Below are positions 14,425-16,426 of a DNA stretch of 64,000 bases, one piece after another. Under the pieces are notes generated by a model, which saw only the letters and a program-made list of their open reading frames with translations, did no database searches and was not told the DNA's origin. The stretch lies in NCBI GenBank assembly GCA_964427275.1, contig CAYRSR010000002.1, positions 1,956 to 65,955 on the forward strand, read 5' to 3'. The position numbers and the translations under genes are program-made. Source of the stretch: an uncultured Candidatus Saccharibacteria bacterium (GTDB lineage Bacteria > Patescibacteriota > Minisyncoccia > UBA6257 > CAYRSR01). The first letter of the stretch is position 1. Each line of letters begins with the position of its first letter.

Positions 14425-14644
14425 AATAAAAAATTTAAAATGTAAATATCAAAATGAAAAATGCTATTAATCAATTTTCAATTTTCATTGAATTTTCAAT
14501 TTTCAATTACCGAGTCCCATTATCGAGGTTGAACCTCGATAATTTCTTCCTTCTAAATTGCATTTGTTTGAAAATTGGTTTATTGATAATTGATTGAAAA
14601 TTAGAAATTGAAAATTGTAAATTGTAATTTTGATTTTTAAATTT
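14425..14644. repeat. AT-rich modular repeat element, copy B, inserted between rsmH and ftsL; long imperfect palindrome with a central perfect hairpin
   Basis: Left arm AAATTTAAAATGTAAATATCAAAATG...CAATTTTCAATTTTCA mirrors right arm TGAAAATTGTAAATTGTAATTTTGATTTTTAAATTT. Central perfect 10 bp stem ATTATCGAGG/CCTCGATAAT (14519-14543, loop TTGAA). Shares blocks with copies A, C and D. Confidence 0.6.
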
Positions 14645-15983: not shown

Positions 15984-16125
15984 TTATCCACAATTTTTTA
16001 GACTTATCCACATATTTATCCACAATTCCCCACTTTGTTATAAGATTACACCACTGGTCAGGAAAAGTCAACTAAAACTGTGGATAACTTTAAAATAATT
16101 TAGTTATATTAGGTTATAAGATTGC
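15984..16125. promoter_or_regulatory. Cluster of four perfect TTATCCACA 9-mers plus a GTTATAAGATT direct repeat upstream of mraZ
   Basis: TTATCCACA on the plus strand at 15984-15992, 16004-16012 and 16016-24; TGTGGATAA (reverse complement) at 16080-16088. GTTATAAGATT appears twice (about 16038-16048 and 16112-16122). The surrounding region is AT-rich. Confidence 0.6.
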
Positions 16126-16144
16126 AATAAATTAAAAACAGGTT

Positions 16145-16426
16145 TCAGTACTTGATTTCAAAATGATCAAACTCTTCCTGACATTTTTGCCATTCAATTT
16201 CTAAATTAGTCACTTTTGCTAAAGGTGGACCTACTTTAATCCAGTTAATCATTTGATTGATTCTTTCTTTTTCACCTTCCAAAACAATTTCTACTTTTCC
16301 ATCAGGTAAATTTTTTACCCAGCCGGTTATTCCCAAACTTTGAGCCTTCTTTTGAGTATAATCACGAAAAAAGACTCCCTGAACTTGTCCGGAAACAATA
16401 ATATGAACTCTAACCTTCTCAGACAT
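16145..16426 (-). CDS. acyP: Acylphosphatase
   Basis: VSGQVQGVFFRDYTQ...GITGWVKNLPDGKVEIVLEG; 93 aa. Confidence 0.85.
   Translation of the reverse strand: MSEKVRVHIIVSGQVQGVFFRDYTQKKAQSLGITGWVKNLPDGKVEIVLEGEKERINQMINWIKVGPPLAKVTNLEIEWQKCQEEFDHFEIKY

Follow-up and report, generated by a model that had tools for sequence, protein, structure and literature searches.

What is a tight cluster of DnaA boxes doing in front of a cell-division gene? The question is posed by a 64,000-nucleotide stretch (the window) of contig CAYRSR010000002.1, from an uncultured bacterium, in which four perfect copies of the DnaA-box consensus 9-mer lie just upstream of mraZ. We find that the cluster occupies the predicted promoter and the leader of the mraZ-rsmH-ftsL-ftsI-murE operon of a Parcubacteria-group Patescibacterium, and that the three co-oriented copies are very probably boxes 2, 3, and 4 of an autoregulatory operator of MraZ. 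They resemble DnaA boxes because the box consensus of this lineage, TG(G/T)GGATAA, becomes TGTGGATAA—the DnaA-box consensus—when its G/T position is T. The fourth, inverted copy belongs, judging by its sequence, to a second, separately conserved upstream element, whose consensus is fitted by the extended form AAACTGTGGATAACTTT on the plus strand; that element may be a real DnaA site.

A Nonrandom Box Cluster Embedded in the Predicted mraZ Promoter

How unusual is the cluster? An exact search of the 64 kb placed TTATCCACA on the plus strand at 15984-15992, 16004-16012, and 16016-16024 and its reverse complement at 16079-16087. These four are the only copies in the window, all lie within 104 bp, and the looser TTATNCACA adds no further match in the window. 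Shuffled sequence would yield 0.53 copies of TTATCCACA per 64-kb window, and the Poisson probability of at least four copies in any 104-bp stretch, corrected for the number of windows, is ~1e-11. The first-pass annotation of this DNA, made from its letters alone, was therefore right that four perfect 9-mers cluster near mraZ beyond chance, although it put the fourth at 16080-88 instead of 16079-16087. The features of the site, listed from the distal end into the gene, are as follows (the family alignment is described below).

16079..16087, plus strand: fourth, inverted box, which reads as TGTGGATAA here and as TTATCCACA on the mraZ strand; separated by 7 nt from the -35 downstream of it, and opposite in orientation to the array
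16066..16071, minus strand: predicted -35, TTGACT; a TTGAC block stands at the matching position of the family alignment
16045..16054, minus strand: box 0, unit GTGGTGTAAT; its GTGG (16054-16051) lies in the promoter spacer beside the -10, 21 bp upstream of box 1
16043..16048, minus strand: predicted -10, TAATCT; family columns -15 to -10 read T50 A57 n n A45 T51 (of 62)
16024..16033, minus strand: box 1, unit GTGGGGAATT, at or just past the predicted transcription start
16016..16024, minus strand: box 2, 9-mer TGTGGATAA; its 10-bp unit GTGGATAAAT runs from 16023
16004..16012, minus strand: box 3, 9-mer TGTGGATAA; its 10-bp unit ATGTGGATAA runs from 16013, with the core TGT at 16012-16010
15994..16003, minus strand: weak or degenerate unit GTCTAAAAAA, a skipped 10-bp position with GTCT at the core
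15984..15992, minus strand: box 4, 9-mer TGTGGATAA; 4 nt before the ATG, overlapping the expected place of the ribosome-binding site
16033-15984, minus strand: the array as a whole, GTGGGGAATT GTGGATAAAT ATGTGGATAA GTCTAAAAAA TTGTGGATAA
15983-15977, minus strand: CTTT and ATG, from the array to the start codon
15548..15979, minus strand: mraZ coding sequence, 143 aa, whose product is the predicted binder of the array (Pfam MraZ, E = 1.8e-41)

Read along the mraZ strand, the order is -35 TTGACT, 17 nt containing GTGG, -10 TAATCT, 9 nt, the array units from GTGGGGAATT to TTGTGGATAA, CTTT, and ATG. Both promoter hexamers are predictions drawn from the sequence together with the family alignment; their geometry is that seen in Escherichia coli, and the start site is predicted too. 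Aligned as 9-mers, the three direct boxes run TGTGGATAA, 3 nt, TGTGGATAA, 11 nt, TGTGGATAA, 4 nt (CTTT), and the ATG at 15979-15977—the spacing that the first-pass annotation had also read. It had objected that the resulting 12- and 20-bp periodicity suits neither the MraZ spacing of E. coli nor, neatly, a canonical oriC. As far as MraZ is concerned, that objection is removed because the TG(G/T) cores are 10 bp apart: the Ts of this register fall at 16032, 16022, 16012, (16002), and 15992, an exact 10-bp period that places the cores on one helical face, and the 12/20-bp figures are an artifact of aligning on the 9-mer. Its statement that the proximal box overlaps the ATG of a longer open reading frame (ORF) needs correction as well, the longer ORF beginning with GTG at 15991-15989, inside the box. 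Public gene calls start mraZ at the MF of the 143-aa protein.

Box 4 (TG(G/T)GGATAAC) sits where a Shine-Dalgarno sequence is expected, and the window leader has no other purine-rich site. Its end and the mraZ start are 4-8 nt apart in the window and where relatives have a short leader (loci L012, L020, L024, L053, and L063); in relatives with leaders of 100-350 nt, box 4 is distant from the start codon. A consensus scan of the intergenic region of the window gave no terminator, and promoter-like sites appeared on the plus strand only and at chance level, so we rejected a terminator or a second promoter there.

The Array Is Conserved Upstream of mraZ Across the Lineage

Is the array a peculiarity of one genome? 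We scanned one genome per GTDB species and recovered 80 related loci (MraZ 62-73% identical), nearly all labelled Patescibacteria or candidate-phyla metagenome-assembled genomes; among the loci discussed here, L085 is a 94% relative and L086 a 78% relative. Conservation was counted at columns not forced by the alignment anchor. Comparison of the regions upstream of mraZ, as the first-pass annotation had proposed, showed the repeat array to be kept, with 62 of the 80 loci aligning without gaps on one layout: TTGAC, N17, aGTGGnGTAtAAT, ~9 nt, AAGTGGGGAATTGTGGATAAnnnTG(G/T)GGATAA, ~10 nt, cTG(G/T)G(G/C)ATAAc. Unforced columns of this alignment are 80-100% conserved. Box 0 (columns -21 to -18) reads G51 T57 G55 G54 of 62, the -10 hexamer TAnnAT is kept in 45-57 of 62 loci per column, and box 2 is TGTGGATAA in 35/62 and AGTGGATAA in 16/62. 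At box 3 (columns 21-29, again of 62) the counts are T61 G62 (G44/T18) G60 G60 A60 T49 A61 A60. The degenerate unit follows, with G or C at column 30 and T at column 31 in 25/36 loci. Box 4 then lies 19-20 bp past box 3 as TGGGGATAA (21 loci), TGTGCATAA (6), TGTGGATAA (5), or minor variants.

The array is also confined to this position. A relaxed three-box pattern matched 60 times in 481 kb searched on both strands, every time upstream of mraZ and on the mraZ strand (60/60), and once in the window; of the perfect 9-mers in the related loci, 71/75 lie within 600 nt upstream of mraZ. The array accompanies mraZ regardless of the gene upstream—acylphosphatase, tRNA, or sigma factor—and in both L085 and L086 every box is retained while the remaining spacer drifts. 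An array found upstream of mraZ in ~60 species, and nowhere else in those loci, supports the suggestion that the three co-oriented copies are GTGG-core MraZ operator repeats.

Conservation within the boxes runs opposite to what DnaA would need. The T that DnaA requires (TGTGG) is G in 44/62 loci (71%) at box 3 and mostly G at box 4, where TGGGGATAA prevails, and the fifth position (N5), to which DnaA is indifferent, is G in 60/62 at box 3; the DnaA-type positions (TGTGnATAA) are thus not conserved in the three direct boxes of the relatives. Boxes 0 and 1, which are not DnaA-like, are conserved as strongly as the others. The sole T of the relatives' TGGGGATAA falls in the 10-bp register and not in the 12-bp register of the aligned 9-mers. 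T occupies all three distal boxes in the window, in L011 and L079, and in two loci from the metagenome scan described below (L148 and L152). Farther Patescibacteria have plain 10-bp arrays (e.g., GTGGGTTGAA GTGGGGATAA GTGGAGTTAA in L054), which tie the variant to the canonical form of the MraZ operator.

Other motifs recur around the arrays of the relatives. CCAC(T)TT, the complement of GTGG, is found between boxes 3 and 4 in many of them (L044, GGGGATAAGTACCCACTTCTGGGGATAAC; L051, ...CTGCCACTTTCTGTGCATAAG) and is not present in the window. Two loci lack the standard layout: L029 has TGTTCAATGTTAAC tandem units straight before the ATG, and in L059 a short GTGG array is followed downstream by GGGGTTAAGA units and CTTAACCACC units in opposed runs.

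The Layout Matches Known MraZ Operators

How does this arrangement compare with operators already studied? The E. coli promoter Pmra and the window share order and distances: a -35, 17 nt, a -10, 8-9 nt, and 10-bp direct repeats up to the mraZ start. The K-12 sequence runs TTGACA, 17 nt, TAAACT, 8 nt, GTGGGAAATT GTGGGGCAAA GTGGGAATAA. Its first repeat, GTGGGAAATT, equals box 1 of the window, GTGGGGAATT, at the same distance from the -10; its third, GTGGGAATAA, is nearly the Patescibacterial box 3, which is (n)TGGGGATAA in relatives and ATGTGGATAA in the window. Unlike E. coli, the window places one additional box within the promoter spacer and a further one two turns downstream, GGATAA after the core is almost invariant in the lineage, and the G/T position is T in the three distal boxes, which makes them perfect DnaA boxes; an inverted box also lies upstream. 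The E. coli MraZ core is reportedly TGGGN, by the account of Eraso et al. in 2014.

In Mycoplasma genitalium, a cryo-electron microscopy study from 2026 describes MraZ boxes of GTG(G/T) plus six spacer nucleotides, the number of boxes being typically three in bacteria and four in certain mycoplasmas, with a transcription start within box 1 and tolerance of altered spacing; MraZ residues K13, R15, and R86 contact bases of TG(T/G) (PMC12957436). The window resembles this system in its direct GTG(G/T) boxes, 10-bp period, more than three boxes, and K13, R15, and R86 at the same positions. The M. genitalium boxes are contiguous, whereas two positions are skipped or degenerate in the window, where MraZ is the predicted binder. 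The MraZ of the window aligns without gaps to M. genitalium MraZ (PDB 9qlr) over residues 1-102 (phmmer E = 4e-23, moderate identity). Residues D11, K13, R15, D82, and R86 are invariant in 27 relatives, and the DNA-contact residues K13, R15, and R86 and the two DXXXR motifs are all kept. In Bacillus subtilis, three GTGG[A/T]G repeats are required for repression (bioRxiv 10.1101/2022.02.09.479790). The GTGG-core triple repeat is thus common to B. subtilis and the window, and in B. subtilis the repeat occurs genome-wide only at the mra promoter (bioRxiv 10.1101/2022.02.09.479790).

By analogy with the operators of E. coli, B. subtilis, and M. genitalium, these observations suggest a start site at or just before box 1, binding by MraZ, and repression. 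A sigma-70-type promoter (TTGACT, 17 nt, TAATCT) would be embedded in direct repeats that have TG(G/T) as their core and recur every 10 bp, one of them lying in the spacer beside the -10 and four or five running from the predicted start to 4 nt before the ATG. A putative MraZ oligomer would bind cooperatively, with its subunits lined up on a single DNA face between roughly -20 and +55. Bound MraZ would block the binding or escape of RNA polymerase, so that mraZ and the division genes downstream of it (ftsL, ftsI) would be under negative feedback.

Several points weigh against this interpretation of the direct boxes. The near-invariant GGATAA beside the core is unexplained by the base contacts of M. 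genitalium MraZ, which cover GTG(G/T) plus one more base. Boxes 0 and 4 are each separated from their neighbors by two helical turns instead of one, and the inverted box is ill-suited to a single co-oriented oligomer. A generic promoter scan made no call at the TTGACT/TAATCT promoter, because TAATCT agrees with TATAAT at only 3/6 positions. All four boxes are perfect, highest-affinity DnaA boxes, and their score on the scale of Ishikawa 2007 is A = 16/31.7 = 0.505; A > 0.3 marks stable DnaA binding, a criterion derived for B. subtilis (PMC2533591). A metagenome scan for three direct perfect copies of TGTGGATAA returned 80 loci (L087-L166), of which 8 lie beside dnaA (6 of them also beside dnaN), 2 beside mraZ, and 70 are unclassified from the available stretch; the prior for such clusters therefore favors DnaA. 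Finally, MraZ binding in this lineage is a prediction from sequence.

A Second Conserved Element Upstream of the Promoter

Where does the inverted box belong? Beyond the promoter, relatives carry a further DnaA-type box of the same class as the fourth box. Taking the best TGTGNATAA match at -150 to -95 from box 1 in 76 loci, and two control windows for comparison, we found a match with at most one mismatch in 51/76 loci, against 3/74 and 2/76 in the controls. With its flanks, the consensus of this element is aac(c/t)TGTGNATAACTT. N5 is free (A, C, G, and T are all seen) and position 3 is nearly always T, unlike boxes 3 and 4 of the array. Partner boxes lie exactly 11 bp away (12 upstream, 7 downstream); other offsets have 0-1. 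Inverted exact TTATNCACA stands upstream of the promoter in 12/76 loci, including the window, compared with ~0.45 expected, at 47-230 bp upstream of box 1; L085 and L148 have the inverted box too. Direct and inverted forms seldom share a locus (49 loci direct only, 10 inverted only, 2 both, 15 neither). From its sequence, then, the upstream element appears to behave as a DnaA box or box pair rather than as a 10-bp MraZ array.

Individual loci illustrate the element at 95-150 bp upstream of box 1: GGTGGATAACTTGTGCATAACC in L011, GGTGAATAACTTGTGTATAACT in L015, and GTGGACAAGTTGTGTATAACTT in L086. The window itself has a degenerate remnant of the direct form, TGTTTTTAA, at 16140-16132 on the minus strand. 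In both the window and L085, tRNA-Val and mraZ are separated by an acylphosphatase gene (16145-16426 in the window); L086 and other relatives are without it, and the -120 element fills that space. Insertion of this gene may be the reason for the inverted box in the window's lineage. In many species a terminator-like hairpin with a conserved loop, TTAAATAAA, lies between the -120 element and the -35 (e.g., AAAAGCCCTTAAATAAAGGGCTTTTTTG in L010 and CCGCTTAAATAAAGG in L012 and L022).

Does DnaA Act at This Promoter?

The alternative that survives best keeps the MraZ operator and adds a DnaA-regulated promoter. Here DnaA would sit on the upstream box (inverted in the window, direct at about -120 in most relatives) and also on the window's three T-variant array boxes, so that dcw expression follows replication status, and MraZ and DnaA would share these nucleotides, as competitors or as partners. 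We regard this dual control as doubtful but worth entertaining. The separate conservation of the upstream element speaks for it, as do the free N5 and the T at position 3 of that element, its occurrence in either orientation with the two seldom together, and its flanks cTGTGNATAACt, which agree with real DnaA-box clusters. Its 11-bp partner spacing is that of dnaA-linked and other DnaA-box clusters rather than the 10-bp MraZ period; 11-bp tandems, free orientation, and similar flanks are all seen in the dnaA-adjacent clusters of the metagenome scan. The Ishikawa score exceeds its threshold. There is also a precedent: the DnaA of B. subtilis is described as binding the yllB(mraZ)/ftsL promoter region (PMC2533591; PMC8203912; bioRxiv 10.1101/2022.02.09.479790). 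That binding parallels the DnaA-like upstream element in Patescibacteria, although the DnaA and MraZ sites of B. subtilis are not known to be the same nucleotides, whereas the MraZ-type boxes of the window coincide with the DnaA consensus.

Against dual control, TG(T)GN fits the MraZ core reported for E. coli too, so that a distal MraZ site is equally possible for the upstream element. Variants TGTTNATAA and TGTGNATAT are frequent in the element and break positions that E. coli DnaA requires. The hairpin described above separates the element from the promoter in many loci. By tblastx, none of the eight dnaA-linked metagenome loci was assignable to the window's lineage, and the literature on Patescibacterial DnaA and oriC yielded general statements only. 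The first-pass proposal of a DnaA-regulated promoter consequently fares unevenly. As the conserved explanation of the three direct boxes it fails, the relatives being mostly TGGGGATAA; for the inverted box and the window's own perfect boxes, DnaA may still be involved.

Could the cluster be purely a matter of DnaA—a DnaA-regulated promoter or a titration site like datA or a DnaA-box cluster (DBC)—with no role for MraZ? We consider this very unlikely. Four perfect boxes in 104 bp with an Ishikawa score over the threshold are what such a site would offer, and most metagenome triple-box clusters are not beside mraZ; regular tandems are frequent among them, with boxes 2, 3, or 12 nt apart in cTGTGGATAAC flanks. 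The window shares with DnaA-box clusters the perfect TTATCCACA, those flanks, and gaps of 3 and 11 nt, which also occur in dnaA-linked clusters. However, boxes 0 and 1 (GTGGTGTAAT and GTGGGGAATT) are equally conserved without being DnaA-like, boxes 3 and 4 are TGGGGATAA in most relatives, and the array is found only upstream of mraZ in the layout of the proven E. coli operator. Unlike DnaA-box clusters, then, the site has G for the DnaA-critical T in relatives, non-DnaA boxes within the array, a strict link to mraZ, a 10-bp core period, and no origin signature.

An RNA element in the mraZ 5' leader, whether structured or bound by a protein, is more improbable again. Boxes 1-4 are predicted to be transcribed, and box 4 occupies the expected place of the ribosome-binding site, but RNAalifold gave no consensus structure for 34 leaders (0.0 kcal/mol), the window leader folds no better than its shuffles (z = -0.95), it has no Rfam match, and box 0 lies upstream of the -10. 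We rejected the RNA element for want of a consensus structure, a significant fold, or an Rfam match.

A chromosomal replication origin (oriC) at 16 kb—suggested by four perfect DnaA boxes in 104 bp with AT-rich flanks, and by at least one lineage of the candidate phyla radiation whose origin is not evident from gene content (PMC4736985)—has a negligible chance of being correct, because cumulative G-C is still falling from 16 kb to 64 kb with no minimum at 16 kb, 31/42 long ORFs right of the site share the minus strand with the operon at its left and show no divergence, the array stays with mraZ whatever the upstream gene, and the boxes occupy a promoter and leader and come within 4 nt of a start codon. 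The skew computation, which the first-pass annotation had recommended for the complete chromosome, was run on the 64 kb visible here. As that annotation had noted, dnaA is absent from the window: tblastn with a B. subtilis DnaA query found no match either there or among 83 related loci. That the query works is shown by the eight metagenome loci in which it detects DnaA. Over the 64 kb covered, the skew, the orientation of the genes, the missing dnaA, and the lack of dependence on synteny led us to reject the origin option.

Other Features of the Locus

The first-pass annotation had also drawn attention to an 11-nt direct repeat, whose copies are as follows.

16037..16047, plus strand: proximal copy of GTTATAAGATT, spanning the -10 hexamer and the predicted start region on the mraZ strand
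16113..16123, plus strand: distal copy of GTTATAAGATT

The repeat is indeed present twice, but it is weak evidence: exact 11-mer pairs no more than 100 bp apart are common in this AT-rich window (15 distinct pairs, ~5x the shuffled level). Each copy keeps 10/11 positions in the 94% relative L085 and is missing from the 78% relative L086. We rejected it as a functional element, given that it is kept only in the closest relative, that such pairs are common, and that the proximal copy merely covers the -10/start region. The AT-richness of 16090-16140 is like that of other intergenic DNA in the window.

The operon itself reads, in order on the minus strand, MraZ, RsmH, an FtsL/DivIC protein, and a class-B transpeptidase (all by Pfam), and then the Mur ligase gene murE (by public gene calls). 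The nearest MraZ proteins are labelled Parcubacteria, Paceibacterota, or Patescibacteria. The rsmH-ftsL gap (14425-14644) is, at 220 nt, unusually long within the operon and contains direct repeats: TCAATTTTCAA at 14471 and 14496 and AATTTTCAATT at 14473 and 14491. In the 94% relative, a 46-aa ORF is called on the opposite strand at the matching place. Upstream of mraZ on its own strand are the acylphosphatase gene, tRNA-Val, rplL, and rplJ with its ribosomal protein L10 leader (Rfam RF00557; 17440-17538, minus strand, upstream of rplJ; 45.8 bits against a threshold of 44), a leader family also found in L015 and L017.

Implications

What does the site mean for this lineage? It is very probably a known kind of site, an MraZ operator, in a new lineage and in a distinctive variant form. 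The MraZ operator would thereby extend to Patescibacteria, where it has an extended box and five to six positions, one of them within the promoter spacer. A risk of misannotation is corrected as well: methods based on box density would call the cluster an origin or a DnaA site, and here it is very probably the operator of another protein. The comparison also exposed a second, widely conserved DnaA-box-like upstream element that was absent from the original observation.

A larger proposal, which we hold to be unlikely, is that the promoter of the Patescibacterial division operon is a combined MraZ/DnaA switch, made up of a conserved upstream DnaA-type box or box pair and MraZ boxes, TG(G/T)GGATAA, that are one base from a DnaA box and that, at the distal positions in organisms like the present one, are all perfect DnaA boxes. 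If so, the replication initiator and the division repressor would read the same nucleotides, and replication status would be coupled to ftsL and ftsI in ultra-small, regulator-poor cells. The question of how replication and division are coupled becomes directly testable at this promoter, and it is sharper in reduced genomes with few regulators.

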